Assembly: GCF_000284115.1 (NCBI RefSeq)
Contig: NC_017080.1
Location: 3,401,534-3,465,533, forward strand
Length of the DNA: 64,000 bases
Direction of reading: 5' to 3'
From: Phycisphaera mikurensis NBRC 102666
GTDB taxonomy: Bacteria; Planctomycetota; Phycisphaerae; Phycisphaerales; Phycisphaeraceae
Under the pieces are notes generated by a model. The model ran no database searches and was not told where the DNA came from. It saw nothing but the letters and a program-made list of their open reading frames with translations. This document shows positions 21,923-37,906 of the stretch, piece after piece. The stretch's first letter is position 1. Every line of letters starts with the position of its first letter. A program made the position numbers and the translations under genes.

Positions 21923-22228
21923 ATGCCGCCGCAACCGTCCGAGCCCGACGCCGCCGACCTCGACCTGCCCCGGGTCCTCCGCGCGCTCGCCGATCCGGTC
22001 CGACTCGACATCGTCCGCTACGCGCACGCCCACCCCGGCGCGCCCTGCTCCACCATCCTCGCCGACGTTCCCAAGAGCACCGCCAGCCACCACTGGAGGG
22101 TCCTCCGCGAGGCCGGCCTGCTCCACCAGGAACCCGCCGGCCGCCAGAAGCTCAACCACCTGCGGAAGGCCGAAGTCGATACCGCGTACCCCGGCCTCCT
22201 CGACGCCGTGCTCGCCGGGCGTGAGTAG
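21923..22228 (+). CDS. ArsR/SmtB-family HTH transcriptional regulator, divergent from the MDR oxidoreductase
   Basis: 'LRALADPVRLDIVRYAH...STASHHWRVLREAGLL' is a canonical ArsR HTH. Length is 101 aa. Confidence 0.75.
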   Translation: MPPQPSEPDAADLDLPRVLRALADPVRLDIVRYAHAHPGAPCSTILADVPKSTASHHWRVLREAGLLHQEPAGRQKLNHLRKAEVDTAYPGLLDAVLAGRE

Positions 22229-22254
22229 CGGGCTTGTTGGCGTTCCTCTCGCTG

Positions 22255-22645
22255 GCCTCGGGCCGGTTGCTGACGCGGCCCCAGCGGGAGTCGCGTTCTT
22301 CCGGCGTGCTGCCGGGGCCGAGGGATTGGCCGTCCCGGCGGGCGTTGGCATTGGCGAAGGTCCCGATCCAGCTCTGCGTGGTCCCGAACTGCTCCTTCAT
22401 CACGCAGAGGAAGGGGTCGGGGATCTTGTCGACGACGCGGATCTCCTGCGGGAGCGAAGCGCCGGGCGCTTCGCCGCCCGGGGCTCGCCCCCCCCGGGAG
22501 CGTTGGCTCCCGTCCAGCCTCGCAGCCGCCGCCTCCAACGCCGCCACGGTCCCGGCGACATCGACCTCCAGGTTCACCGGTGCCGGTGGCAAGCGGCGGA
22601 TGCGCCCGAGCCTGCCGGAGTGGATCCACCTCGCGAGGTCCACGG
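22255..22645 (-). pseudogene. Decayed paralogous copy of the 3' end (C-terminal domain) of the giant ATPase gene
   Basis: DNA at 22262-22635 aligns with 25045-25400 at roughly 75-80% identity (for example 'gatccagctctgc..tgctccttcatcacg.agaggaagg.gtcggggatcttgt.gacgacgcggatctcctgcggg'). The encoded 'RLPPAPVNLEVDVAG.VAALEAAAA.LDGSQRSRG...PQEIRVV.KIPD.FL.VMKEQF...QSWI...NAR.DGQ' matches the giant protein's C-terminus. The corresponding stop is lost and the ORF reads into the 3' end of arsR. Confidence 0.45.
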
Positions 22646-22647
22646 TT

Positions 22648-23637
22648 CTAACGCCGCGTCGCCCGCAGGATCCACCAGCCGCGGCGGTGGTCGGCGCCGG
22701 TGTAGAAGAGCACGCCCGCACCGCCTTCGCCCGTGGCGAAGCTGATCGAGGGGGCGATGATCTCGGAACGTTCCAGCGGGCCGTGCTGGACGAGCAGGGG
22801 TGCGGGGTCGGGCGTCCAGGGGCCGAAGGGGTGGTCGGCGGTCGCGCGGAAGATGGCCTCGCGGTCGCCGTGGGCGTCCGTGCGCACGGCGACGAAGCCG
22901 CCGCCGGGCCGCGGGGTGACCTGGCCCTCCATCCCGATCGGGCAGTCGACCTCGGCGGGCTCGCTCCAGGTGGTGCCGCCGTCGGCGGAGGTCGCGCCGA
23001 GGACGCGGACGCGCGTCACGCGATCGGGCGGGGCGTCCCAGGCGAGGAAGACCAGGTGCAGCGTTCCCTCGTGCTCCACGACGCTCGGGGAGGTCACGCA
23101 GTGGACGAACGCGCCGGCGAGGTGCCCGCGCTCCACGACCGGGCCGGGTCGCTCGCGGTACGGGCCCTCCGCGGAGGCGGCCTCGGCGACGTGCAGCTGC
23201 GCCTCGTAGCTCGCTTCGTCCGCGTAGGCGATGTACCACAGCCGGTGACGGCCCCCGGCGGTGGCGCGGTGGAAGCCGGTCTCGCGGCTGATCGCCGGGG
23301 CTCCGGCGGGCCGGAGGATCTCGATCGTCCGGCCCGGCGCCCATCCGCCGGCCGCCCCGCGGGTGGCGAGCTTGAGCGCAGGCCGGTCGTCGTGGTCACC
23401 GGTGTAGAGCATGCGAACGACGCCGCGACCGTCCGCGAACACGTGCGGATCGCTCGCCACCTCGTACCCGCCGCCGGGCAGCGGGTCGCGCAGGATCGCA
23501 CCGGCGGGATCGCGGTGCCAAGCCCCGACCGCCGCCGCGGGGGCCGCCTCGCCGCAGCCGGGCATGCAGAGGCAGGCGGCGGCGGCGACGGCCACCCAGA
23601 GCCTCGCCGGCGATCGCTTCGGGATGCTGCGGATCAT
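22648..23637 (-). CDS. Secreted or lipoprotein glycoside-hydrolase-like five-bladed beta-propeller protein (GH43/GH32-like)
   Basis: Signal peptide with 'CMPGC'. Repeated Asp/Glu-containing blades ('VASDPHVF', 'WYIAYADE', 'HLVFLAWD', 'GGTTWSEP'). The family call is tentative. Confidence 0.45.
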   Translation of the reverse strand: MIRSIPKRSPARLWVAVAAAACLCMPGCGEAAPAAAVGAWHRDPAGAILRDPLPGGGYEVASDPHVFADGRGVVRMLYTGDHDDRPALKLATRGAAGGWAPGRTIEILRPAGAPAISRETGFHRATAGGRHRLWYIAYADEASYEAQLHVAEAASAEGPYRERPGPVVERGHLAGAFVHCVTSPSVVEHEGTLHLVFLAWDAPPDRVTRVRVLGATSADGGTTWSEPAEVDCPIGMEGQVTPRPGGGFVAVRTDAHGDREAIFRATADHPFGPWTPDPAPLLVQHGPLERSEIIAPSISFATGEGGAGVLFYTGADHRRGWWILRATRR

Positions 23638-23754
23638 CGCGTGCTCCTCGCAAAAGGCTGAGGATCCCGATCGCGTGGTCCGTTCTCGGGCGACACGCCG
23701 CTTCGCGCCGGCTGCCGGCGGTGCGCCCCGGGGTCCGCCGGACCCGTCCGGGCT

Positions 23755-24225
23755 TCAGATCGGATCGGCCGAGGCATAGAGCACCGCGCTCACCCGTCGC
23801 ACCCGATCCAGCTGAGCCGGCGGCAGCGTGATCATCAGGCTGGCGAGCTGGGTCTGCTCGCCCGCGGGGATGCCGTCGTCCCCGAAGCTCGACTGGCTCG
23901 ACGCGCCGATGAGTTCGCCCGCCGCGTCGAAGACCGCGACGTGCATGCTCACGTGGCGGGCTCCGTCGGCCTCGTTGAACAGCTGCGCCGACACCATCAG
24001 CTTCTCGCGGCCGAAGAATTCGCCGCGGTAGAAGGACGTCTCGAGGCGGACCGACGCCGCTTCGAGCTGGAACGCCGGCGCCCCTTCCGGCGGCCCGAAC
24101 TCGCTCGCGGGCAGCGCCTCGAAGCCGACCGAGGCGGCCTCGGAAGCCGGTCCCGCGAACGCGGTCGCCGAGGCCAGCCACACCGCCGCGAACGCGGCCA
24201 CGATCCGGCAGGGAAGGGATCTCAT
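23755..24225 (-). CDS. Secreted hypothetical protein
   Basis: Clear signal peptide 'IVAAFAAVWLASATAFAGPAS'. Composition is protein-like. Confidence 0.4.
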   Translation of the reverse strand: MRSLPCRIVAAFAAVWLASATAFAGPASEAASVGFEALPASEFGPPEGAPAFQLEAASVRLETSFYRGEFFGREKLMVSAQLFNEADGARHVSMHVAVFDAAGELIGASSQSSFGDDGIPAGEQTQLASLMITLPPAQLDRVRRVSAVLYASADPI

Positions 24226-24452
24226 CCCCCGAAGCTACCGCAACACGGCCGCCGGGGCCCCGCCCCAAGATCTCGGGCCTTCCCCAGGATCCTCCGCCCT
24301 TGCACCGGAGCCCGCCTTGGCGTCGCGGCCGGGCCGTGGAGGAGCTCCGGCCCCTTCCCGCGAGACGAGGCCGCGGCTGGGGTCTAGTGTCGACGGGACG
24401 TCGCCGGAGGAGGCGGCGTCATCCTCGGGTCGAGAAACGAAGGAGTGGTGAA

Positions 24453-24995
24453 ATGCGGATCCCAACGATGGGAGCGCTTGTGATTGGTGCCGCGGGCGCA
24501 AGCGGCGTCGCGGCTGCGCAGAGCGTGGAGGGGTCGATCGTGAGCGGCGGAACCACCGTCACCTCGGGCACGGCAACGCCGGGGCCGGGGGTGGAGTTCC
24601 GCGGCGAGGTCTTCCGCAACGAGATCTTCGGTGTCAACAGCGCCGACGCCTTCATCGACGTGGACGACGACGGGCTGGGCGCGAGCTTCGGGATCGAGCG
24701 GACGGCCGGCTCCGCCGGGGTGTCGTCCGAAACGCCGGTGACGTTCACGCTCTCTGGCGCCGCGGTCGCGGGCATCGCCTCGGTGGACCTGCTCGACGAG
24801 AGCTTCGGCCAGGACCGGCCCGTCGAGAGCAGCTTCCGCGGCGGCACGCTGACGGTGACGCTGACCAACGGCTTCTTCGTGGGCTCCTCCGACCCCAGCC
24901 GCGCGGCGGACTTCGGCTTCACGCCGATCCCCGAGCCCGCCGCGGCGGGGGTTCTCGCCCTCGGCAGCGCGGCTCTGCTCCGCCGGCGAGGCTGA
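24453..24995 (+). CDS. PEP-CTERM sorting-domain protein (exosortase substrate)
   Basis: ATG at 24453 is preceded by an AAGGAG Shine-Dalgarno at 24441-24446. There is a signal peptide, and the C-terminus 'TPIPEPAAAGVLALGSAALLRRRG' is a textbook PEP motif plus TM plus basic tail. Confidence 0.7.
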   Translation: MRIPTMGALVIGAAGASGVAAAQSVEGSIVSGGTTVTSGTATPGPGVEFRGEVFRNEIFGVNSADAFIDVDDDGLGASFGIERTAGSAGVSSETPVTFTLSGAAVAGIASVDLLDESFGQDRPVESSFRGGTLTVTLTNGFFVGSSDPSRAADFGFTPIPEPAAAGVLALGSAALLRRRG

Positions 24996-25013
24996 AACGC
25001 CTGTCACCAGGCC

Positions 25014-28000
25014 TCAGCTCCGGTCGCTGTTCTCGAGCTTGTCGATGACGCGGCCCCAGCGGTGGGTGAGCTTGTCGAGGGTCTGCTGCAGCTCGGTGAG
25101 CTGGCCGTCCTGGCGGGCGTTGACCTGGGCGAAGGGCTCGATCCAGCTCTGCATGATCTCGAATTGCTCCTTCATCACGTAGAGGAAGGTGTCGGGGATC
25201 TTGTTGACGACGCGGATCTCCTGCGGGTGCGTATCGCCGGTGGCTCGCTCCCCCCGGGAGCGTTGACTCCCGTCCAGCTTCGCAGCCGCCGCCTCCAACG
25301 CCGCCACGATCCCGGCGACGTCGACCTCCAGGTTCACCGGCGCCGGTGGCAAGCGGCCGTCGCGGACGGCCGAGGCGATCCCGCCGATCGCGGCGTTCAC
25401 CTTCGAAAGCTCGGCGATGGCCGCGGCGGTCGCGTCGCCGGACGAAACGGCGGCGGCGACGGAGGCCGCGGAGCCACTGATCTTGCTCAGCTCGGCGATG
25501 GCGGCGGCGGTCGCGTCGCCGGACGAAACGGCGGCGGCGACGGAGGCCGCGGAGCCACTGATCTTGCTCAGCTCGGCGATGGCGGCGGCGGTCGCGTCGC
25601 CGCCGAGTGCTCTGACGCTGTTGTTCCGCACGAAGGCGGACTTGATCTCCACCCACCGCTCTTCCTGCTCGGGTGTGAGCCCGAAGACCAGCTCGCGGAA
25701 CTTGAGCAGGTTGGCCTCGGCGCCGGTGGTGAGCGTCTGCGCATCCTGCTCGTAGGCGGAGACGATCAGCTCCCGCAGCTCCGCGTCGTTCATGACGGCG
25801 GAGACCTTCTCGGCGATGCGGTTCATGTTCCGGTAGCTGCCTTGCAGCAGGAACGGCGGCTCGGTGCGGTAGTCGTCGTCCTGACCGGCGGAGGCGATGT
25901 ACGCGAGGTTGACCTTCAGGATCACATCGCGGACGCGGGCCAGCTTCCGCACGACCTCGACCATCTCCGCCAGCTCGTCGGGCGGGAAGCTCCCGTCGAA
26001 CTCGACTCCGTCGGGCGAGGCGCCGCCGGCGAGGCGGATGACGCGGTGAACGTCGTCGCGGGTTGCCGTGGCCAGCGGGTTCAGCGCCGGGTTGCTGGTG
26101 AGCGCGTTCTCGAGGTAGCTCATCTCGAAGGCGTCGCCGTGCGCCCCGATGATGTCGCCGAGGTTGTACGTGTCGGCCCGGTTGCTGAGCATGTCCGGGA
26201 TGCGGAAGGCCTCGCCCGACTCCGTGTACGGGTTGCCGGCCATGACCACGGCGACCCGCCGGCCGCGGAAGTCGTAGGCCTTGGGCTTGCCGTGGCGGAC
26301 GCCCTCGATCCGGCGCTGGGCGTCGCAGAGGCTGATGAACTTCTGCAGGAACGCGGGGTTCGTGTGCTGGATGTCGTCGACGTAGACCATCACGTTGTCG
26401 CCCATCTCAAAGCCGAGGTTCAGCTTCTGCAGCTCCTCCTTCGCCGCGGCGTTGGTGGCCTCGGCGGGGTCCAGCGAAGTGACGCCGTGCCCGAGCGCCG
26501 GGCCGTTGATCTTGAGGAACACCATGCCCAGCCGGGCGCACACGTATTCCATCAGCGTCGTCTTGCCGTAGCCGGGCGGCGAGATGAGCAGCAGCAGGCC
26601 CATGCGGTCGGTCCGGGTGTCGGCGCCGGCGGTGCCGATCTGCTTGGCGAGGTTGTCGCCGATCAGCGGCAGGAAGACCTCGTCGAGCAGCCGATTCCGG
26701 ACGAAGCTGGTGAGCACCTTCGGCTTGAAGGTGTCGAGCCGCATCTGGTCGCGGGCTTCTTTAAGCACCTCGTGCTTGGTGTCGCTGAACGCCTCGAACG
26801 CGGCGACGCCGGCGGTGGCGAAGCGCCGCATGCGCGGGACCCAGACCGGGTAATCGATCGTCAGCTCGCCGCCGCGGATGCGGGGGTGGTCGCCGACGAG
26901 GTTCTCCACGCTGCGCGTTGGCGAGGCGTCGAGGACGCGGAGGTTGTTCTCACCTCCGGCGAGGCGCAGCGCAACTTCCGGGTCACGATCCCAGGTGCGG
27001 GCGAGGCGGAAGCGCTCCACGGCATCCGGAGCCGCTTCGAGCGCGGCGGCGAGCGGCTCGCCCGCCGTCTCGCGCAGCGAGGCGGCGGACGCAACCGCCC
27101 CGCCGCTCGCCGCGAAGCGGACCTCGCCGCCGATCCCCGCGAGGCCGACCTCGGCGGCGAGCACGGCAACGGCCTCGTCGGCTTGCTCGGCCGTGAACCC
27201 CCCGACCTCCTCCGCGAATCCGCGGACCGTGGCCTCCAGCGCCGGGAAACCTCCACGGTCCGCGGCATCCGCCTCTGCCTCTGTGCCTCCTCTGTGCCTC
27301 TGTGCCTCCGTGTCCTCTGCGTTCCGCGAAGCGGGTCCCGGAGACGCGGCCGCGGCGGCGTTGGCGAGGCGGAGGTGCCACAGCTTCCGCTCATCGTCGG
27401 TGGCGCCGGCCTCCCACCAAAGCTGCGCCAGCACCCGAGCGGGGGCGGAGAAGCGGAGCGTGCCCAGCGTGTCCCGCAGCTCGACCAGGGCCGACAGGAT
27501 CTTCGCCGCGTCGGCGTCGTGGACGCCCTTCACGTAGCCCTCGGCGTAGCGCGGCGCCATGTACGCCTGCACCGCCTCGACGGAGGTGCCCGCGCCCGCT
27601 TCGAGCATGAGGTACGCGAGGTACTCCGCCCGGTACACGCTCGCGGACTCGCTGACCAGCGCCTGGTCCCACCGCGCAGACGCTCCACGCAGGCGGGGAT
27701 CCGCAACCTCCTCGAAGAACTGCGTGCCGGTGACGTGCAGCACCGGCGTGTCGTCGCGGTGCACGAGCGTCAGGTCGATCGGCTGCGTGCTGATCGCGAA
27801 GGTGTGCCGGCCGAAGCGGATCGTGTCGCGGCCGCCGCCCTGCAGGTCGAGCCGATCCTTGAGCCGCCGGACGGCGTCCTCCTTCGCGGCCTTCAGCCCC
27901 GCGCGCAGGTCACCCTCGCGTACCCGGTCGTCCATCCCGCCCAGCTCGTCCGCGAGGTCGCGGAGCTTCTCGACCATCAGGTCGCCGGCGAAGTAGGCGT

Positions 28001-30416
28001 TGATCTCCTCGACCGCGTCCATCGACTCGACCCGCGAACGGACCGTCCCGAGGATCCGTTCCGCCGCCCGGGCGAGCGTGTCGGCCCGCTGGTTCTTCTG
28101 CTCGACGAGCGCGAGCCTTCGCTGCTCGAAGGCCGCGAGCACCTCCTCGCGCTTCTCGATGAGCACCCCGACGAAGTCGTCGAAGCCGCCGAAGCTCGCT
28201 TCGAGTTCCTCGACCTGGACCATCAGCTTCGCGAGCGAGGCGTCGGCCTTCTCGGGCGTGTCGGCCAGCTCCAGCGCGTTGGTGATGCTCTGCTCCAGCA
28301 GCTTCAGCCGGGAGGCGAACTCGGCGGCGCCTTCCTGTTGGCCCAGCTCCTGCCGCCGGGCCCGCAGCCGGGAGCGGGTGGCGTTCAACCGGGAGAAGAC
28401 CTCGGAGATCGCCTCGACCACCGCGGTCCGCTGCGTCGCGTCGTCGATGTCGAGGTTGTTGACGACGTCGATCAGCAGCTCCAGCTCGCCGGCTGCCTCG
28501 GCGACTTCGTCGCCGAGGGCTTCGGCCTCGGCCGCGGTGGCGAGGGCACCGACGGCTTCGTCCTGCGCCCGGACCCGATCGCGGTACGGGTCCAGCGCGT
28601 CGTCGCGGAGCAGGAACGAGAGCGTCTTCTGCGAGACGGCCTCGGTCTGATCGACGACCTCGGCCTCCATCGCCTCGACCTCGCCCGGGTCGACATGCCG
28701 CAGCTCGCGGAGGCCGATGACCTCGCCGCGGACCGCCCGCAGCGCCGCGAGCGTCTCGACGTACCCGCCGACCTCGTCGGGGTTCGCCACGCGGGCCGAG
28801 GCGATCGCGGCGTCGACCTCCGACCGCACCTCCGCGACGGCCCGGGCCGTCTCGCGTCGCTGCCGGGTCAGCTTCTCGTACTCCCCCACCGCCGCGGCCG
28901 CCGCGTCGCGGATGCCCGCCAGCGGCTCGGCCACCCGCGCGGCGGCATCTTCTCCTAGCCAGAAGTAGGTGTCCAGCAGGTCACCGGCCTGCTTGACGAG
29001 GTCGGCGTACAGCGATTGGTAGAGGTCCTCCCGCGTCGCGAGCCCGAGCACCTGCCGGGCCTCGGCCATGGCCCGGACCACGTCGCGGTTGCCGATCCGC
29101 TTGAGCGGGTTGTCGTCCCCCCCGCCGGCCACCGCGGGCGCGACGTGGTCGGGCCCCACGAACGGAGTCGTCCAGTTCTGCACCGCGTGGTGCTTCTGCG
29201 GCTCGGCGCCCTCCGGAGACTTGAACAGCAGCAGCCGCCCGTCGTCGCGGAAGGCGTAGCCGTTGCACACGATCGGCGCGGCGACTTGGCGGGCGATCAG
29301 GTTGTACGCGAACAGCACGTAGACGCCCCGCTCCCGCTGGTAGAAGACGTAGAGGAAGTCCTCTCCATTCGGAGACACGACCCTGCGGTCGAAGGTGAGC
29401 CCGCCCGGGGCCGCCACCAGGTCCGCCACCGCCGCGAACACCTGCTTCTCGCCGGTGGCGAGGTACACGCCGTCGGCGGTCATCACGCCCTGGTCCTCGG
29501 GCAGCAGCACCGCGGCAGTGCCCAGGCCGTCGGCCCGGACCGCGGTGCCGAGCTTCGTGTTGAAGACGAAGTGCCGCCACGCCTTCTCGCGGTACGGGCG
29601 GATGCGCAGCAGGACCAGCGGGCCCTCGACCACGTACAGCACGTCGGCGTCGTCGAGGCCCTGGTCCGGCTCGTCCACCGGCTCGGCCAGGATGCCCTCG
29701 CCCGTCTCGGTGTTGTTCTCGACCTTGATGGTCAGGTCGCCCCCGGTGGTCTCGACGAAGACCAGGTCCTCGATCGAGTAGTGCGGGAACCGCCCGCCGG
29801 TCTGCATGTCGCGGGTCACGCGTTTCCACGCGAAGTCGTGCTGGGGCGGGTAGGTGACCTCGTGGTCGGATCGATTGCCGAGGTAGGCCAGACCTTCTCC
29901 TTCTTGTCCTGACTCGCCGGGGGCGAATGCCCACTTGAACGCCTTGAAGTCGTCGACGGTCCGGCCGGTCCGGAACTTCATGTAGACGTGGGGCCCGCGG
30001 CGGAAGAACTTGGTGAAGCGTGCGTCCTTGTAGAAGCGCATCAGGTCGGTGAAGTCCTTCCTGAAGCTCTCGTTCTCCAGCAGCCCGAGGCCGTCGTCGT
30101 GGAAGACCGCTTCGTCGTCCTGCCGGTAGCAGGCGAAGACGTCGCCGAGGTCGACGGTGCTCTTGAGGCCGAAGTGCACGTTGAAGCCCATCAGCACGCG
30201 GTCGCCGACGGCCACGATGTCCCGCGGCACGCAGGCGTGCGCCGTGGTCACCCGCGAGGTGCCGGCCAGCGCGAGCTCGACGCTGCCGAACGCCTCCTTC
30301 CGCTTCGCGTTGAGCGCCTCGAGCCGCTCCCGCAGCTCTCTCGCCTGCGCATCGAGCCGCCCGCGGAGCACGTCGTAGGAAGACCGGTCGAGCTGTTCGG
30401 GTGGGGCGTCAGGCAT
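25014..30416 (-). CDS. Giant (1800 aa) AAA+ ATPase with a coiled-coil region, C-terminal tandem repeats and a conserved C-terminal domain; family unknown
   Basis: Protein-like composition across the whole ORF. Walker A 'LLLISPPGYGKTTL', Walker B 'VMVYVDDIQ' and the 'VAVVMAGNPYTESGEAFRIPDMLSNRADTYNLG' sensor region sit at about residues 1215-1400 (AAA_5/MoxR-like). A long E/A/R-rich helical middle fits a coiled coil. Three 26-aa repeats '..AAIAELSKISGSAASVAAAVSSGDAT' lie at residues about 1585-1660. The gene is immediately downstream of the flotillin and NfeD genes, in the same orientation. Confidence 0.75.
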   Translation of the reverse strand: MPDAPPEQLDRSSYDVLRGRLDAQARELRERLEALNAKRKEAFGSVELALAGTSRVTTAHACVPRDIVAVGDRVLMGFNVHFGLKSTVDLGDVFACYRQDDEAVFHDDGLGLLENESFRKDFTDLMRFYKDARFTKFFRRGPHVYMKFRTGRTVDDFKAFKWAFAPGESGQEGEGLAYLGNRSDHEVTYPPQHDFAWKRVTRDMQTGGRFPHYSIEDLVFVETTGGDLTIKVENNTETGEGILAEPVDEPDQGLDDADVLYVVEGPLVLLRIRPYREKAWRHFVFNTKLGTAVRADGLGTAAVLLPEDQGVMTADGVYLATGEKQVFAAVADLVAAPGGLTFDRRVVSPNGEDFLYVFYQRERGVYVLFAYNLIARQVAAPIVCNGYAFRDDGRLLLFKSPEGAEPQKHHAVQNWTTPFVGPDHVAPAVAGGGDDNPLKRIGNRDVVRAMAEARQVLGLATREDLYQSLYADLVKQAGDLLDTYFWLGEDAAARVAEPLAGIRDAAAAAVGEYEKLTRQRRETARAVAEVRSEVDAAIASARVANPDEVGGYVETLAALRAVRGEVIGLRELRHVDPGEVEAMEAEVVDQTEAVSQKTLSFLLRDDALDPYRDRVRAQDEAVGALATAAEAEALGDEVAEAAGELELLIDVVNNLDIDDATQRTAVVEAISEVFSRLNATRSRLRARRQELGQQEGAAEFASRLKLLEQSITNALELADTPEKADASLAKLMVQVEELEASFGGFDDFVGVLIEKREEVLAAFEQRRLALVEQKNQRADTLARAAERILGTVRSRVESMDAVEEINAYFAGDLMVEKLRDLADELGGMDDRVREGDLRAGLKAAKEDAVRRLKDRLDLQGGGRDTIRFGRHTFAISTQPIDLTLVHRDDTPVLHVTGTQFFEEVADPRLRGASARWDQALVSESASVYRAEYLAYLMLEAGAGTSVEAVQAYMAPRYAEGYVKGVHDADAAKILSALVELRDTLGTLRFSAPARVLAQLWWEAGATDDERKLWHLRLANAAAAASPGPASRNAEDTEAQRHRGGTEAEADAADRGGFPALEATVRGFAEEVGGFTAEQADEAVAVLAAEVGLAGIGGEVRFAASGGAVASAASLRETAGEPLAAALEAAPDAVERFRLARTWDRDPEVALRLAGGENNLRVLDASPTRSVENLVGDHPRIRGGELTIDYPVWVPRMRRFATAGVAAFEAFSDTKHEVLKEARDQMRLDTFKPKVLTSFVRNRLLDEVFLPLIGDNLAKQIGTAGADTRTDRMGLLLLISPPGYGKTTLMEYVCARLGMVFLKINGPALGHGVTSLDPAEATNAAAKEELQKLNLGFEMGDNVMVYVDDIQHTNPAFLQKFISLCDAQRRIEGVRHGKPKAYDFRGRRVAVVMAGNPYTESGEAFRIPDMLSNRADTYNLGDIIGAHGDAFEMSYLENALTSNPALNPLATATRDDVHRVIRLAGGASPDGVEFDGSFPPDELAEMVEVVRKLARVRDVILKVNLAYIASAGQDDDYRTEPPFLLQGSYRNMNRIAEKVSAVMNDAELRELIVSAYEQDAQTLTTGAEANLLKFRELVFGLTPEQEERWVEIKSAFVRNNSVRALGGDATAAAIAELSKISGSAASVAAAVSSGDATAAAIAELSKISGSAASVAAAVSSGDATAAAIAELSKVNAAIGGIASAVRDGRLPPAPVNLEVDVAGIVAALEAAAAKLDGSQRSRGERATGDTHPQEIRVVNKIPDTFLYVMKEQFEIMQSWIEPFAQVNARQDGQLTELQQTLDKLTHRWGRVIDKLENSDRS
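25400..25640. repeat. Roughly 78-bp direct tandem repeats (about 3 copies) inside the giant ATPase gene; they encode 26-aa protein repeats
   Basis: 'gctcggcgatggc.gcggcggtcgcgtcgccggacgaaacggcggcggcgacggaggccgcggagccactgatcttgctca' recurs at about 25411, 25491 and 25572. Confidence 0.7.
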
Positions 30417-30457: not shown

Positions 30458-30988
30458 TGTACGAGCGGCGCTTCGCTTGATCACAGAGAGCACAGAGGCA
30501 CAGAGGCCACAGAGAGGCACAGAGGTTGGGGCTCAGGCTTGGTCGGCGATCACGCGGCGGCTGTGGTCTCGGATGTTGTCGCCGTGGAAATTGATCAGGA
30601 GGCCCAGTGGCAACTGCATTGCGCGGAGATAAGTGATGACCTGGTCGCGATGAGCATCGTGGAGTCGCTCTACAGCCTTCAACTCGATCACGAGCTCGCC
30701 CTCGACAAGGAGATCCACCTTTCCTTCGCCAACCACCACGTCCTTGTAAACCAGCCGGACCGAAACCTGCCGCTCGAAGGAGATGCCACGCGAACCCAAC
30801 TCGACAGCCAGCGCATTCTCGTAGGTCTGCTCCCTGAATCCCGCACCCAGTGCCGAATGCACCTCCATGGCGGCACCCAACACCCGCCCGGTCAGTTCGC
30901 TGTCGCTCATCTTCTTCCTCCGTGCCTCTCTCTGTGGCCTCTGTGCCTCTGTGCTCTCCGTGTTCAAGCGAAGCGCTGCCCGCACGCA
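30458..30988. mobile_element. MITE-like cassette: GxxExxY gene bracketed by roughly 58-bp imperfect inverted repeats built from CACAGAGG-type units
   Basis: Left arm 30458-30520 is 'gcgcttcgcttgatcacagagagcacagaggcacagaggccacagagaggcacagagg'. Right arm 30911-30988 is 'cctccgtgcctctctctgtggcctctgtgcctctgtgctctccgtgttcaagcgaagcgc'. The right arm is the reverse complement of the left with a few mismatches and one 2-bp indel. Confidence 0.55.
30533..30910 (-). CDS. GxxExxY protein (PD-(D/E)XK nuclease-fold family)
   Basis: 125 aa from 'MSDSELTGRVLGAAMEVHSALGAGFREQTYENALAVEL' (GxxExxY motif). 'DLLVEGELVIELKAVERL' fits D..E.K PD-(D/E)XK geometry. Start at cat 30908-30910; the track ORF extends 25 codons upstream into the repeat arm. 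Confidence 0.8.
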   Translation of the reverse strand: MSDSELTGRVLGAAMEVHSALGAGFREQTYENALAVELGSRGISFERQVSVRLVYKDVVVGEGKVDLLVEGELVIELKAVERLHDAHRDQVITYLRAMQLPLGLLINFHGDNIRDHSRRVIADQA

Positions 30989-33210: not shown

Positions 33211-33930
33211 TCAGAACGCGGCGACGTAGTAGACGCGGGACTCGTCGTCCTCCGCGACCAGGACGGCTTCGTCGCCCTTGTTCAGGACGACGCTCTCGTC
33301 GCGGGTGCGGGCGTGGAGCTTGAGGGGGGCGCCGGCGGTGGCGACCTCGACCTGGCCGCCGCGGGTGTCGACGGTCAGCGAGGAGACGGTGCAGCGGCGG
33401 CCGAGCAGCTTCAGGTTGCTTTCGGCCTCGCTGTCGGCCTCCATCGTCTTGACCATTCTTGCGATCGGCATCGTCACGAGCTTCATGACGATCAGCGAGA
33501 CGAGCAGCACGGGGACGAAGAAGAGCAGCTGGAAGAGCAGGCCCCAGCCGCCGAAGACCGGGTACGCGAGCACGCCGATGGCCCAGAGCGACAGCAGCAG
33601 CACCGACCACAGGACCAGGATCGGCACGCGGCCGACGTTGAGGAACTCCAGCGTGTCGCCGACGAAGCCGTGGGCGCCGACGTCGCCGTCCACGTCGGCG
33701 TCGCCGGCGTCGAAGTCCAGGTCCAGCGAGTCGATGCCGACGGCACCGAGGATCACCACGAGCCAGTAGAGGCCCGTGACGCACAGCAGCACGCTCAGCA
33801 CCAGGTTGACCGGGCTCGCGACGCAGGCGTTGAAGAAGTCGATCACCAAGTCCGCCCTTCGCCACGCGGTCGCTCCCGGGTTGCGGCCGCGTGGGGAGGC
33901 TCGGAAACTCCCCCGGGGGGAGACTCGCAT
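33211..33930 (-). CDS. YqiJ/NfeD-like membrane protein with a C-terminal OB-fold domain
   Basis: Hydrophobic N-terminal half ('VNLVLSVLLCVTGLYWLVVILGAV', 'ILVLWSVLLLSLWAIGVLAY', 'FFVPVLLVSLIVMKL') and a C-terminal beta-rich 'GRRCTVSSLTVDTRGGQVEVATAGAPLKLHARTRDESVVLNKGDEAVLVAEDDESRVYYV' typical of the NfeD OB domain. Placement immediately upstream of flotillin is canonical. Start is uncertain (ATG 33930 or an internal GTG). Confidence 0.6.
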   Translation of the reverse strand: MRVSPRGSFRASPRGRNPGATAWRRADLVIDFFNACVASPVNLVLSVLLCVTGLYWLVVILGAVGIDSLDLDFDAGDADVDGDVGAHGFVGDTLEFLNVGRVPILVLWSVLLLSLWAIGVLAYPVFGGWGLLFQLLFFVPVLLVSLIVMKLVTMPIARMVKTMEADSEAESNLKLLGRRCTVSSLTVDTRGGQVEVATAGAPLKLHARTRDESVVLNKGDEAVLVAEDDESRVYYVAAF

Positions 33931-33995: not shown

Positions 33996-36122
33996 TCAGC
34001 GGGTCCAGGCGCGGCCCGCCAGCGCTTCGAGCACGAGCAGAGCGAGCACGACCCAGAGCAGACCGGCGGCGAGGGAGGCCCGCGCCGGGTCGCCGGCGAA
34101 GGCGGCGGCGGGGTCGTCGGCGGGGAGGAACGCGACGGGCCCGAGGCCGGCGTACGCGGCGGCGACGCGGGAGGCCGCCTGGCCGGTGGTGTCGGCCGGG
34201 GCGGGCGAGACCACGGTTCCGCCGGAGAGGCCGGCACGGCCGCCCGTCGCGTCGCCCGCGGCGGCGACGGCCGGCTCCGCCTCGGCGCGGGCGGCGACGG
34301 CGGCGAGCAGGCCGTCGCGCAGCAGCGCGGGGAAGAGCGGCTTGGCCGGCAGGTTCGTCCAGGCGGGATCGAGGGCGGTGGCGAGGTAGACGACGCGGCC
34401 GGCGGCCTCGGCGGAGCGGGCGGAGGCGGTGAGCGGCACGCCCGCGGCGGAGCGGATCCAGACGTCGGCCGGATCGACGCCGGCCGGCGCCGCGAGCCGA
34501 TCGATGCGGAGCGGGCGGAGAAGCGCCTCCCACTGGCCGGCGAGCAGCGCGAGCGTCGCGGGAGCGGGCCGGGAGGCGTCGGCGCGGATGGGCCCCTCGG
34601 CGCCCTCCGCCGCGGGGGACGGCCGCCACGGGAGGCCCAGCGCCTCGAACAGCGCGCCCAGGCCGGCTCCGGGCTCGTCTTCGGGTGCCGCGGCGGAGGG
34701 CGTGACCCAGGCGGCACCGCCGGCGGCGACGAACGCGGCGACGGACGCGCGGCCCGCCGGGCCCAGCGCGGCGGGGTCGAGCGTGACGACGGCGTCGAGC
34801 GTGTCGTCGCCGCCTCCGGGCGGGACCAGCGCCACCGGCGAGCCGAGCGGGCGGACCGCAAAGCCGGTGCCCTCCCCCAGCGCCGCGGCGGCGAAGTCGG
34901 AGGGCGCGAGGCCGCCGTCGGCCGATTCCCCGCCGAGCAAGCCCACGCGCACGGCCTCCACCAGCTCCACGCGGGCGAGGCCGGCGTCGTCGGCGGCGAC
35001 GGCGTCGCCGGCGGGCGGATCCAGCGTGGCGAGCAGCAAACGGCGGCCGGGCGCGAGCGGCTCGGGCGCCTCCAGCGGGACGCGCACGACCGCCTCGGCG
35101 ACGCCGGCGTCGAGGGTGACCTCGCGGCGGCCGGTTGCGAGCGCCGGCCGCTCCGCGAGCGCCGCGAGCGGGGTGAAGCCGGCGGCGGCCGCGGGTTCGA
35201 CCAGCTTGACGACGACGGAGGCGTCGGCCGCCGCGCCGGCGGCGCCCGCGGCTTCGCCCGCCCGGCGGACCCGCACGAGGGCCTCGAGCCGGCCCGCCGA
35301 GCGGGACGCGGCGGCGTCACCCGCCGCGACCACCGCCCGCGTCGGGCGGACGCCGCCGAGGGCGAGGTTCGGCACGCCGGCCGCCGGCCGCGACAGCCAG
35401 ACCCGCGGACCCACGCCGTTTCCGCCCTCCGGGGCCCACGGTCCGCGGCCGGCCACGCCCTCCTCGGGGAAGTGGGGGGAGAGCACGACCACCGCGGCCT
35501 CGCGGCCGGCGGCGGCGTCGGCACGGGCCGCCTCGGCGACGCGCGGGAGCACAGCCTCCCGGGCTGGCGCGGCGTCGGTCACGCCAAGGCCGGCGACCCG
35601 CTGGCGGGCGGCCGCGGGGGCAAGCGACGGCGGATCGCCGGCGTCCCCGCCGCCGGCGAGCGGCCAGATCCGCACGCGGTCCGCGGGGTCGAGCGAAGCG
35701 AGCACGGCGTCGGCTTCACGCAGGGAGCGGGCGAGGAAGGCGTCTTCCTCGCCCGGCAGCCGTGCACCCGACGCGATCCCGTTGTCGATCACGAGGTCCA
35801 CCGACCGCCCCGCGGCCCCGGCGACCCCCAGCGCCGAGGCGAGCCGCCCGCTCACCAGCGGCCCCGCCAGCGCGAGCCCGAGCAGCACGAGCAGCAGGCA
35901 GCGGCAGCCCAGCAGCAGCCACCGCTCGAAGCGGAGCCGGCGACGCTGCTTCTGGATGGCCTCCCGCAGGAAGCGCATCGCCGCCCACGGGCGCTGCTTG
36001 CGGCGTCGCCGCGAGAGCAGGTGCAGCGTGACCGGCACCGCCACCGCCGCGACGCCCGCCACCGCGAGCGCCGGCGCGACCAGCGAGGCGGCGGCCTGGG
36101 CGAGAACGAACGGAGCCTGCAT
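33996..36122 (-). CDS. BatA-like / N-terminal double-transmembrane-domain protein (aerotolerance-regulator N-terminal type), 708 aa
   Basis: The N-terminus 'FVLAQAAASLVAPALAVAGVAAVAVPVTLHLLSRRRRK...WLLLGCRCLLLVLLGLALAG' is the characteristic two-TM BatA N-terminal domain. There is a C-terminal TM helix. It sits directly downstream of DUF58 in the same operon, which is the typical arrangement. Confidence 0.55.
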   Translation of the reverse strand: MQAPFVLAQAAASLVAPALAVAGVAAVAVPVTLHLLSRRRRKQRPWAAMRFLREAIQKQRRRLRFERWLLLGCRCLLLVLLGLALAGPLVSGRLASALGVAGAAGRSVDLVIDNGIASGARLPGEEDAFLARSLREADAVLASLDPADRVRIWPLAGGGDAGDPPSLAPAAARQRVAGLGVTDAAPAREAVLPRVAEAARADAAAGREAAVVVLSPHFPEEGVAGRGPWAPEGGNGVGPRVWLSRPAAGVPNLALGGVRPTRAVVAAGDAAASRSAGRLEALVRVRRAGEAAGAAGAAADASVVVKLVEPAAAAGFTPLAALAERPALATGRREVTLDAGVAEAVVRVPLEAPEPLAPGRRLLLATLDPPAGDAVAADDAGLARVELVEAVRVGLLGGESADGGLAPSDFAAAALGEGTGFAVRPLGSPVALVPPGGGDDTLDAVVTLDPAALGPAGRASVAAFVAAGGAAWVTPSAAAPEDEPGAGLGALFEALGLPWRPSPAAEGAEGPIRADASRPAPATLALLAGQWEALLRPLRIDRLAAPAGVDPADVWIRSAAGVPLTASARSAEAAGRVVYLATALDPAWTNLPAKPLFPALLRDGLLAAVAARAEAEPAVAAAGDATGGRAGLSGGTVVSPAPADTTGQAASRVAAAYAGLGPVAFLPADDPAAAFAGDPARASLAAGLLWVVLALLVLEALAGRAWTR

Positions 36123-36158: not shown

Positions 36159-37172
36159 TCAGGCCCGCATCGCGGAGGAGCGCTGGGCGAGGGCGGCGGC
36201 GAGCTGCGCGCCCGGCGGCTCGTCGGTGCGCATCAGGCGGTGGTCGTAGCCGAAGCGGGTGCAGGCGGCGCCGACGGCGGCGAGGTGCTCCCCAACGGCG
36301 GCGCGGTAGGCCTTCCGCAGCGACCTGGGGTCGGCACCGACGCGGCCGCCGCCCTCGAGGCCGACGAACTCGGCTGGCTCGTCGCCGCCGGGCCCGCTGC
36401 CCAGGTCCAGCTCCACCGGATCGAGCACCTGCAGCACGAGCGTGTCGTGGTTCGCTCCGCCGTGCCGCAGCCGGCCCAACGCCGACTCCAGCGCCGCGAC
36501 CGGGTCGAGGAGGTCGGCGAGGATCACGACGAGCCCGCGCCGGCCGCCGCCGCCGCCCAAGCCGCCGGCGATGCGGCCGGCGGCGGCGAGGAGGCCCGCG
36601 CCCCGGTCGTCTTCCTCGGCGGCCTCCCCGCCGGACGCCTCGGCCTCGGCCACGCCCGCCGCGTCGAGCGCGGCGGTGACTTCCTCGGCGTGGCCCGACG
36701 CGTTGCTCGGCGGCAGGCCGCCGCTCACGCCCGCGTCGAACAGCACGAGCCCGACGCGGTCGCGCTGGCGGGTGCCCAGGTGCGCGAGCGTGCCGGCGAG
36801 CACGGCGGCGTGGTCGAACTTGCTCCAGGCGTCCGGCCGCGTCCGGCCGCCGGGCCGGACCGCACCGCCGGCGCCACCCGCGAAGCGCATCGACGCGGAC
36901 CGGTCGACGGCGAGGGTCAGCTCCAGCTGGCTCTCCCGCTCGAACTGCCGCAGGTGGGCCTTGTCGGTGCGGGCGAGCACCTTCCAATCGAGGTGCCGCA
37001 GGTCGTCGCCGGCGACATAGGGCCGGTGCTGCGCGAACTCGGTGGAGACGCCGGAGAGCGGCGTGCGGTGCCCGCCGGAGAGCAAGCCCTCAACGACGAG
37101 GCGGCTGCGTAGCTCGACCCCCTCGACGGCGCGGAGCGTCTCGGGATCGGGATGGAGGCTTCTCTCCGGCAC
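36159..37172 (-). CDS. DUF58 protein (MoxR-associated, vWA-like)
   Basis: 'EFAQHRPYVAGDDLRHLDWKVLARTDKAHLRQFERESQLELTLAVDRSASM' is the DUF58 signature. Confidence 0.8.
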   Translation of the reverse strand: MPERSLHPDPETLRAVEGVELRSRLVVEGLLSGGHRTPLSGVSTEFAQHRPYVAGDDLRHLDWKVLARTDKAHLRQFERESQLELTLAVDRSASMRFAGGAGGAVRPGGRTRPDAWSKFDHAAVLAGTLAHLGTRQRDRVGLVLFDAGVSGGLPPSNASGHAEEVTAALDAAGVAEAEASGGEAAEEDDRGAGLLAAAGRIAGGLGGGGGRRGLVVILADLLDPVAALESALGRLRHGGANHDTLVLQVLDPVELDLGSGPGGDEPAEFVGLEGGGRVGADPRSLRKAYRAAVGEHLAAVGAACTRFGYDHRLMRTDEPPGAQLAAALAQRSSAMRA

Positions 37173-37192: not shown

Positions 37193-37906
37193 TCACGCCG
37201 CGATCCGCGGGTAGAGGCTCAGCAGCTTGATCCGGGCGTCATCGGCGGTGAACTGCCAGTGCACGCCTCGCTGGCTCTGGTTGCGAGCGGCCGCCCAGGC
37301 TCGGGCCTCGCGATCGATCTCCTGGATGGTGTCGATCCGTCGGCCGAGGCATTGCCTTGAGAGCACACTCAGTTCGCACTCGGCGATGTTCAGCCACGAA
37401 CCGTGGGCCGGCGTGTGCACCAGCTCGATCCGCTCAGCGATCCGCCGCGCCTCTGCTGCCTCGAATGCTTCGTACAACGACGCGATCCTGTGGGTGTTCA
37501 GGTTGTCGCACACCAGGCGGATCCGCGTCGCTGACTCGTAACGCGGGGCGTCCACCAACGCCTGGATCTGGTGGGCCCAGTCCGCCGCGGTGCGTCGCCG
37601 ACTGGTCCGAACGTCCCGCCACCCAGCCAACGGCTCGGTGAACATCCACAGGTTGCAGGTGCCGTGCCGCACGTACTCGTGGTCCTCGATCCGACGGCCG
37701 GTGGAGTCGGTGAAGCGGCGGCGGGTCTCGCCGATGAGCTGCTTGGGCTGCTCGTCCATGCACACCACCGGCAACGCCGGGTCGTAGGCGAGCGCGTACA
37801 GGCACAGCACCGCCTCCATGGCCGCGACGAAGGCCGCGGACTGCTCCGGCGGGATGCACCACATCTTCTTCCTCCACGGCTTCAGGCCGTTTTTTGAAGA
37901 GCGCAC
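37193..37906 (-). CDS. IS630 transposase OrfB (DDE catalytic domain), probably expressed as an OrfAB fusion by -1 frameshifting
   Basis: DDE motifs 'VVCMDEQPKQL', 'LVCDNLNTH' and 'HTPAHGSWLNIAE'. The overlap with OrfA covers the plus-strand 'cgttttttgaag' at 37893-37904, which is 'CTTCAAAAAACG' on the coding strand. Confidence 0.8.
   Translation of the reverse strand: MRSSKNGLKPWRKKMWCIPPEQSAAFVAAMEAVLCLYALAYDPALPVVCMDEQPKQLIGETRRRFTDSTGRRIEDHEYVRHGTCNLWMFTEPLAGWRDVRTSRRRTAADWAHQIQALVDAPRYESATRIRLVCDNLNTHRIASLYEAFEAAEARRIAERIELVHTPAHGSWLNIAECELSVLSRQCLGRRIDTIQEIDREARAWAAARNQSQRGVHWQFTADDARIKLLSLYPRIAA

Follow-up and report, generated by a model that had tools for sequence, protein, structure and literature searches.

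What does a protein of 1800 residues do that databases call a DNA repair ATPase and that UniProt labels as uncharacterised? The question is raised by a gene in the window analysed here, a stretch of 64,000 nucleotides (nt) from the chromosome of Phycisphaera mikurensis NBRC 102666 (NC_017080.1, positions 3,401,534 to 3,465,533), in which all positions are counted from its first letter (Table 1). On balance, the gene seems to encode the large cytoplasmic subunit, a remodelling ATPase, of a three-gene cassette that also comprises a YqiJ/NfeD-like membrane protein and a YqiK-type flotillin, the link being drawn from gene order. The conserved flotillin–NfeD–ATPase cassette is the point of this locus worth following, and the species-specific repeat and relic, both described in an earlier note on this DNA, are ordinary products of rearrangement.

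The neighbourhood of the gene, which that note had overlooked, is its most informative feature. Homologues were compared in sets of 88 sequences for the alignment of motifs, 87 for an insertion, 57 for linker lengths and 82 loci for neighbourhoods. Of the related loci, 62 extend far enough upstream to be judged, and in 61 of these the ATPase gene is immediately preceded by a flotillin gene in the same orientation, separated from it by a median of 122 nt; an NfeD-like gene was seen in 56 of 60 loci. Moreover, clustering of the open reading frames (ORFs) of the 82 loci returned the ATPase, flotillin and NfeD-like families as the only conserved ones. At least seven phyla are represented among the loci, including Planctomycetota, Verrucomicrobiota, Kiritimatiellota, Bacteroidota, Desulfobacterota, Omnitrophota and Hydrogenedentota, and the identity retained across them is considerable (44–64% in the DUF3686 head of the ATPase, 61–81% in its AAA+ module and 52–89% in the SPFH domain of the flotillin). 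Linkage of this breadth thus argues for a function shared with flotillin.

The flotillin of P. mikurensis and Escherichia coli YqiK share 29% identity along 516 aligned residues (E 1e-37). Flotillin and Band 7 models of Pfam and NCBIfam miss the P. mikurensis protein, no Pfam family matches it even at E 10, and comparison with the sequences of solved structures returned nothing useful. The small membrane protein encoded upstream scores 21.5 bits against Pfam YqiJ_N, just below the cut-off of 23, and is matched to E. coli YqiJ by BLASTP with E 3e-7 over 198 residues. A flotillin-family SPFH protein is, therefore, preceded by a small NfeD-like membrane protein, as in the YqiJ–YqiK and YuaF–FloT operons; the two genes found here are homologous to those of E. 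coli YqiK and YqiJ and stand in the same order. This operon type is covered by a survey of SPFH proteins from 2009 (PMC2636767), which mentions no ATPase neighbour and in which the word 'ATPase' is absent. Two differences separate the cassette from its E. coli counterpart: no ATPase gene follows yqiK in E. coli, and the flotillin here is longer than YqiK, ending in a part of about 165 residues that is conserved across phyla (36–62% identity) but did not align to YqiK.

The product of the ATPase gene is identical to BAM05043.1 / WP_014438253.1 (UniProt I0IIF5), encoded on the 3.8-Mb chromosome of P. mikurensis. The guanine plus cytosine (G+C) content of the window is about 72% and reaches a fraction of 0.93 at the third codon positions of the ORF, a value typical for a real gene in this genome; the ORF is a real gene and an annotated member of an uncharacterised, widespread family. 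Pfam recognises four families in the protein, namely DUF3686, DUF7902, AAA_5 and AAA. The match to DUF3686 (PF12458) covers profile positions 1–448 of 448 with 595 bits (E 7e-179), and the colinear arrangement of DUF3686, DUF7902 and a single AAA module is that of the DUF3686/DUF7902 family of giant ATPases, whose full-length representatives measure 1600–2036 residues. A total of 2156 homologues was recovered, the best 120 of which share 45–78% identity at about 100% coverage, the carriers number roughly 600 species, and the DUF3686 domain accounts for 692 clusters at 50% identity among 1.84 billion representative proteins. An exact-sequence look-up for further assemblies holding the gene gave no match, and a search of the 64-kb window with Rfam returned no RNA family.

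The name 'DNA repair ATPase', carried by at least 2156 homologues, appears to have spread without evidence that could be found. Literature searches, including those that combined ATPase with flotillin, MoxR, YqiK, SPFH or NfeD, returned no published work on the DUF3686 giant ATPase family and no paper backing the name. A true repair ATPase, acting on DNA in the manner of SMC/Rad50- or RuvB-type proteins, would agree with the database names ('DNA repair ATPase' or 'ATPase involved in DNA repair'), with weak matches to RuvB that are limited to the P-loop and with long helical regions that are superficially SMC-like. However, the RuvB matches span about 50 residues and reach 19.5 bits against a cut-off of 282, the predicted fold is that of a MoxR-class AAA+ protein instead of an ABC/SMC ATPase, family searches found no nuclease, helicase or DNA-binding family in the protein, and the conserved neighbours are two membrane proteins and not repair genes, all of which makes a role in DNA repair extremely improbable.

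The ATPase module had been placed at about residues 1215–1400; the motifs are indeed there, whereas the boundaries shift to those given in Table 1. Walker A (ISPPGYGKTTL, residues 1278–1288), Walker B (VMVYVDDIQ, 1342–1350) and the sensor stretch (1388–1420) contribute the characteristic residues K1285, D1347–D1348 and N1395 of sensor 1, with R1529 as the sensor 2 residue and R1413 as the candidate arginine finger. Walker A, the DDIQH of Walker B, the AGNPYT of sensor 1, R1413 and the QGSYR of sensor 2 (1525–1529) are invariant in the 88-sequence alignment. Together with an alpha/beta core and a lid in the predicted fold, these elements make up the full set of the AAA+ superfamily, and on formal hidden Markov models the motifs score above the Pfam cut-offs for both AAA_5 (residues 1275–1398, 25.4 bits against 22) and AAA (25.1 bits against 21.2). 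A second P-loop module was found neither by Pfam nor in the AlphaFold models, which contain one alpha/beta ATPase fold, in agreement with the single module claimed before. In these models the fold is closest to the structures of MoxR-class AAA+ proteins (the CbbQ/NorQ/GvpN group). MoxR-class ATPases are ring-forming remodellers. Midasin and dynein, the known giants of AAA_5 type, concatenate six AAA+ modules per chain, whereas the present protein has one.

The AlphaFold models, with mean values of 85.6 (residues 1–1180) and 80.8 in the predicted local distance difference test (pLDDT), also describe the rest of the chain. The DUF3686 region is modelled as an N-terminal helix (residues 11–43) followed by a beta-rich, propeller-like domain (49–416), for which Foldseek returned beta-propellers (CyRPA, prolyl oligopeptidase and WD40) with E values of 1e-5 to 1e-3 and low TM-scores. 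The DUF3686 domain, of some 450 residues, had escaped the earlier note, whose plain layout of an ATPase core flanked by coiled coil is imprecise. The 600 residues of heptad-like coiled coil which that note had proposed upstream of the core are helical but come to about 420: in the monomer model they form a rod of helices of 20–58 residues parted by loops, the best structural matches of which are three-helix bundles and spectrin repeats. In the middle region, the model contains a small beta domain (865–903) and a helical domain (929–1154) with a disordered stretch (1026–1052).

Table 1. Features of the giant ATPase locus of P. mikurensis, with positions in the 64,000-nt window and residues of the ATPase.
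Feature	Position	Strand	Remarks
Giant ATPase gene, 1800 residues	25014–30416	minus	ORF; RefSeq name 'DNA repair ATPase'
DUF3686 region	28962–30338	minus	residues 27–485; Pfam E 7e-179; pLDDT about 90
All-helical rod	27843–29108	minus	residues 437–858; long helices; includes DUF7902
DUF7902	28347–28601	minus	residues 606–690; Pfam
Middle region	26637–27824	minus	residues 865–1260; small beta domain, helical domain, pre-AAA segment
Lineage-specific disordered insertion, about 20 residues	about 27249–27305	minus	residues 1038–1056; partly CACAGAGG-encoded
Single AAA+ module	25617–26609	minus	residues about 1270–1600
Tandem array, three units of 81 nt / 27 residues	25356–25598	minus	residues 1607–1687
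Low-complexity variable linker	25203–25355	minus	residues 1688–1738; low pLDDT
C-terminal helical hairpin	25017–25202	minus	residues 1739–1800; motif NKIP..QF..M..W..P plus terminal helix
Decayed duplicate of the last ~115 codons of the ATPase gene	22249–22597	minus	pseudogene relic, 2.4 kb downstream
Inserted cassette in the flotillin–ATPase spacer	30459–30985	minus	GxxExxY gene (30533–30910) within inverted repeats
YqiK-type flotillin gene, 665 residues	31002–32999	minus	directly upstream of the ATPase gene
YqiJ/NfeD-like membrane protein gene, 239 residues	33211–33930	minus	from ATG at 33930; start uncertain

In its more ambitious form, the proposed function is that of a dedicated ATP-driven partner of flotillin, so that the three proteins would constitute a membrane machine that assembles, dismantles or unloads scaffolds and the name 'DNA repair' would be wrong; this is put forward tentatively, at somewhat less than an even chance. 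Along the chain, a propeller-like DUF3686 head is followed by a three-helix-bundle rod, a helical middle domain, a MoxR-class AAA+ module whose catalytic motifs are intact, a flexible linker and, in some phyla, a hairpin tail. The AAA+ modules could assemble into a ring docked on the flotillin scaffold at the inner membrane face, and this ring would spend ATP on remodelling the flotillin/NfeD assembly or any client proteins that the scaffold retains. The ATPase would in this manner bring an energy-driven step into a scaffold that is otherwise ATP-free, and FloA–NfeD is described as a stabiliser of unfolded proteins that acts independently of ATP (PMC11222466). A known parallel is HflK/C, which is described as joining the AAA+ protease FtsH in an SPFH complex (PMC13220708) and is alike in pairing a membrane scaffold of the SPFH type with an AAA+ ATPase. 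However, FtsH is a membrane-anchored protease of the classic AAA clade, whereas the giant ATPase has no predicted membrane segment or protease domain; the partner here is of the flotillin (SPFH2) type and not HflK/C, and the pairing is read from the order of the genes.

Several observations weigh against this proposal. The tie to flotillin is one of gene order, and locus L040 lacks an upstream flotillin gene. In several lineages, unrelated genes are inserted between the flotillin and ATPase genes, so strict co-transcription is not assured. When a sequence profile is compared with the AAA+ proteins of solved structure (PDB), the match is confined to about 37 residues at the P-loop, which leaves predicted structure as the basis of the MoxR assignment; the AAA_5 profile, although covered from position 2 to 125 of 139, is matched weakly at its 25.4 bits. 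Walker B reads DD where DE is usual, and thus ATP hydrolysis may be slow or regulatory. The VWA-domain partner that is normal for MoxR-class ATPases was absent from the conserved cassette in the clustering of the 82 loci, and the propeller assignment of the DUF3686 domain is weak, with TM-scores of at most 0.35. CbbQ/NorQ-type MoxR ATPases (AAA_5) differ from the giant protein on the same points, having a VWA partner that the P. mikurensis cassette lacks and sequence similarity to it that is confined to the P-loop, and they are also much shorter (about 260–300 residues against 1800, with some 1270 extra N-terminal residues here).

The same relatives suggest another target. CbbQ and NorQ mature unrelated enzyme complexes, and the giant ATPase, co-expressed with flotillin, might likewise serve the MoxR-type maturation of an unlinked complex, or it might be a spectrin-like element beneath the membrane, with flotillin as an anchor at most. 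The rod of three-helix bundles resembles cytoskeletal linkers, and the spacer tolerates insertions, both of which would be compatible with such looser roles. However, linkage in 61 of 62 loci over at least seven phyla would be hard to explain without a shared function, and no gene for a third-party client is conserved nearby. This alternative is considered unlikely, and a remodelling ATPase acting on the flotillin scaffold or on its clients is preferred.

The spacer of P. mikurensis illustrates how variable the flotillin–ATPase junction can be, since it measures 585 nt against a median of 122 nt elsewhere. It contains a GxxExxY gene (TIGR04256, E 1.2e-39) flanked by 58-nt inverted repeats (30459–30516 and 30928–30985) that are 91% complementary and built of CACAGAGG units, and the whole looks like a small mobile cassette. 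The same 8-mer repeat, at 27249–27312, encodes part of the disordered insertion within the ATPase gene, which is missing from 85 of 87 homologues and modelled with a pLDDT below 50. The corresponding CACAGAGG 16-mer has 5 occurrences in the window when up to two mismatches are allowed, whereas 0.03 would be expected. Long spacers of 630–1470 nt with unrelated ORFs were also seen at L035, L038, L061, L064, L065, L067, L071, L072 and L081, which belong to several Bacteroidota and one Verrucomicrobiota; by eye, two of these ORFs are like IS200-type transposases and others are lipoprotein-like. Upstream of the three-gene cassette, the window contains a gene with a BatA N-terminal domain (33996–36122, 81% G+C), a DUF58 gene (36159–37172) and a DDE transposase gene (37193–37906), the last of which stands at the place usually taken by the MoxR gene in such operons. 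These DUF58/BatA genes, 3 kb upstream in the window, are not linked to the cassette elsewhere: of the loci searched, a DUF58 match was returned by L021 alone, where it lies 5 kb downstream from the ATPase gene.

Giant ATPases carrying repeat or propeller sensor domains are common in conflict systems, and mobile DNA such as the GxxExxY cassette and the DDE transposase, together with a recurrently rearranged 3' end of the gene, could also suggest that the protein is the sensor or effector of an anti-phage or other conflict system. However, PADLOC models run on all three proteins of the cassette gave only noise, the cassette has a fixed composition with no nuclease or toxin effector, and the strong conservation of its proteins across phyla also speaks against such a system, which makes this function very improbable.

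The tandem array close behind the AAA+ module had been described as three near-identical repeats of 78 base pairs (bp), or 26 residues. An array of three units is present, but its period according to Tandem Repeats Finder is 81 nt, that is, 27 codons in frame, and only two of the copies are identical. Unit 1 (25518–25598, residues 1607–1633) and unit 2 (25437–25517, residues 1634–1660) agree at 81 of 81 nt, whereas unit 3 (25356–25436, residues 1661–1687) matches them only over its first ~36 nt (12 codons, which encode DATAAAIAELSK), with 28 mismatches in 81 nt overall. The nearest relatives, P0002 (78% identity) and L004, have a single copy of the segment, which, together with the identity of the two units, bears out the recent expansion suggested earlier. 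The segment itself corresponds to a helix conserved throughout the family, with the consensus QVIAQL..F.DGL..I. Taken as everything between the AAA+ module and the tail, the array included, the linker has 137 residues here and 82–200 in the 57 homologues examined, so the idea of a length-variable linker holds across homologues and is plausible only on the evolutionary scale; the exact repeat occurs in one of the 57, the P. mikurensis protein.

In a second assembly of P. mikurensis, the gene appears as two partial proteins, WP_041379433.1 (1606 residues) and WP_221434138.1 (195 residues), both on one contig of 191,721 bp. The split falls between G1606 and D1607 (window position 25598), one residue before unit 1, and the second partial protein shows the same repeat units as the reference assembly. 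The array, therefore, disturbs assembly, and copy number, which is single in the two relatives, is not comparable between the two assemblies. Frequent copy-number change at a contingency locus, which would tune the reach of the C-terminal tail, could in principle explain the break in the second assembly, as well as the identity of two units at every position; each change of copy would remain in frame, and the linker tolerates a wide range of lengths in homologues. However, the restriction of the exact repeat to a single protein and the agreement of both assemblies wherever the units are readable do not suggest frequent change, and two or three copies of an 81-bp unit lend themselves poorly to slippage in comparison with classical contingency repeats, which have short units. 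Tuning by such a locus is, thus, very improbable.

Behind the linker, the chain ends in the hairpin tail, of which P1741, Q1751, F1752, W1758 and P1761 are invariant in the 88-sequence alignment; a Pfam search of the tail returned no family. The tail occurs in Planctomycetota, Omnitrophota and Desulfococcaceae but is missing from the Bacteroidota forms of 1615–1660 residues, and is thus a separable, clade-restricted accessory. The earlier suggestion of a separate C-terminal unit stands in this sense, but its size of about 140 residues is reduced to a hairpin of about 60 behind a variable linker. Two candidates for a tail encoded on its own were rejected: P0273 is an artefact, produced by a frameshift in a fragmented long-read contig, and the extra ORFs between the flotillin and ATPase genes of Bacteroidota are mutually unrelated.

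A decayed, free-standing copy of this end of the gene does lie downstream, as had been proposed, and fills the gap between two genes whose 3' ends converge on it. The copy is matched by tblastn with E 7e-41 and has 81% DNA identity to the gene over 350 nt (106 of the first 112 nt), and it starts at the codon matching R1688, directly after the end of the tandem array. A 15-nt insertion and radical changes at conserved positions set it apart from the gene, and over 92 codons the proportion of nonsynonymous differences (pN 0.148) equals that of synonymous ones (pS 0.150). It is, therefore, a neutrally decaying pseudogene relic and not the reused domain that it had been taken for. No other internal duplication was found within 22000–25400. 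Synteny with the closest genome was considered as a source of the 2.4-kb segment between gene and relic and was rejected, as no downstream genes are shared. The ~790 bp from the stop codon of the ATPase gene to the next convincing gene (24226–25013, the gene lying at 23755–24225) contain no coding-biased ORF and no family match, and may be further decayed sequence of the same segment.

A comparable fragment occurs on another Phycisphaerae contig (L084, 5241–5715), where an orphan 3' piece of a giant ATPase gene, frameshifted and lacking an upstream ATPase gene, opens with the AAAIAQL codons, that is, at the start point of the P. mikurensis repeat unit. The relic and this fragment together suggest that a short 3' stretch of the ATPase gene is prone to breakage and rejoining in Phycisphaerae. 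A Cas9–Cas1–Cas2 locus lies 2.4 kb downstream of the orphan fragment. The 81-bp duplication, the CACAGAGG-derived insertion, the GxxExxY cassette and the relic are, on balance and jointly with the cassette reading given at the outset, probably recent local rearrangements and not functional innovations.

The repeat and the stray copy matter less, as signs that the 3' end of the gene is rearrangement-prone in Phycisphaerae and that draft assemblies break at the array. The role of bacterial flotillins, and the way in which their assemblies are built up and taken down, are still debated. An AAA+ gene following the flotillin gene in nearly every genome that carries it provides a concrete hypothesis of energy-driven remodelling and, if this is true, the giant ATPase would be the first energy-consuming component assigned to a flotillin system.

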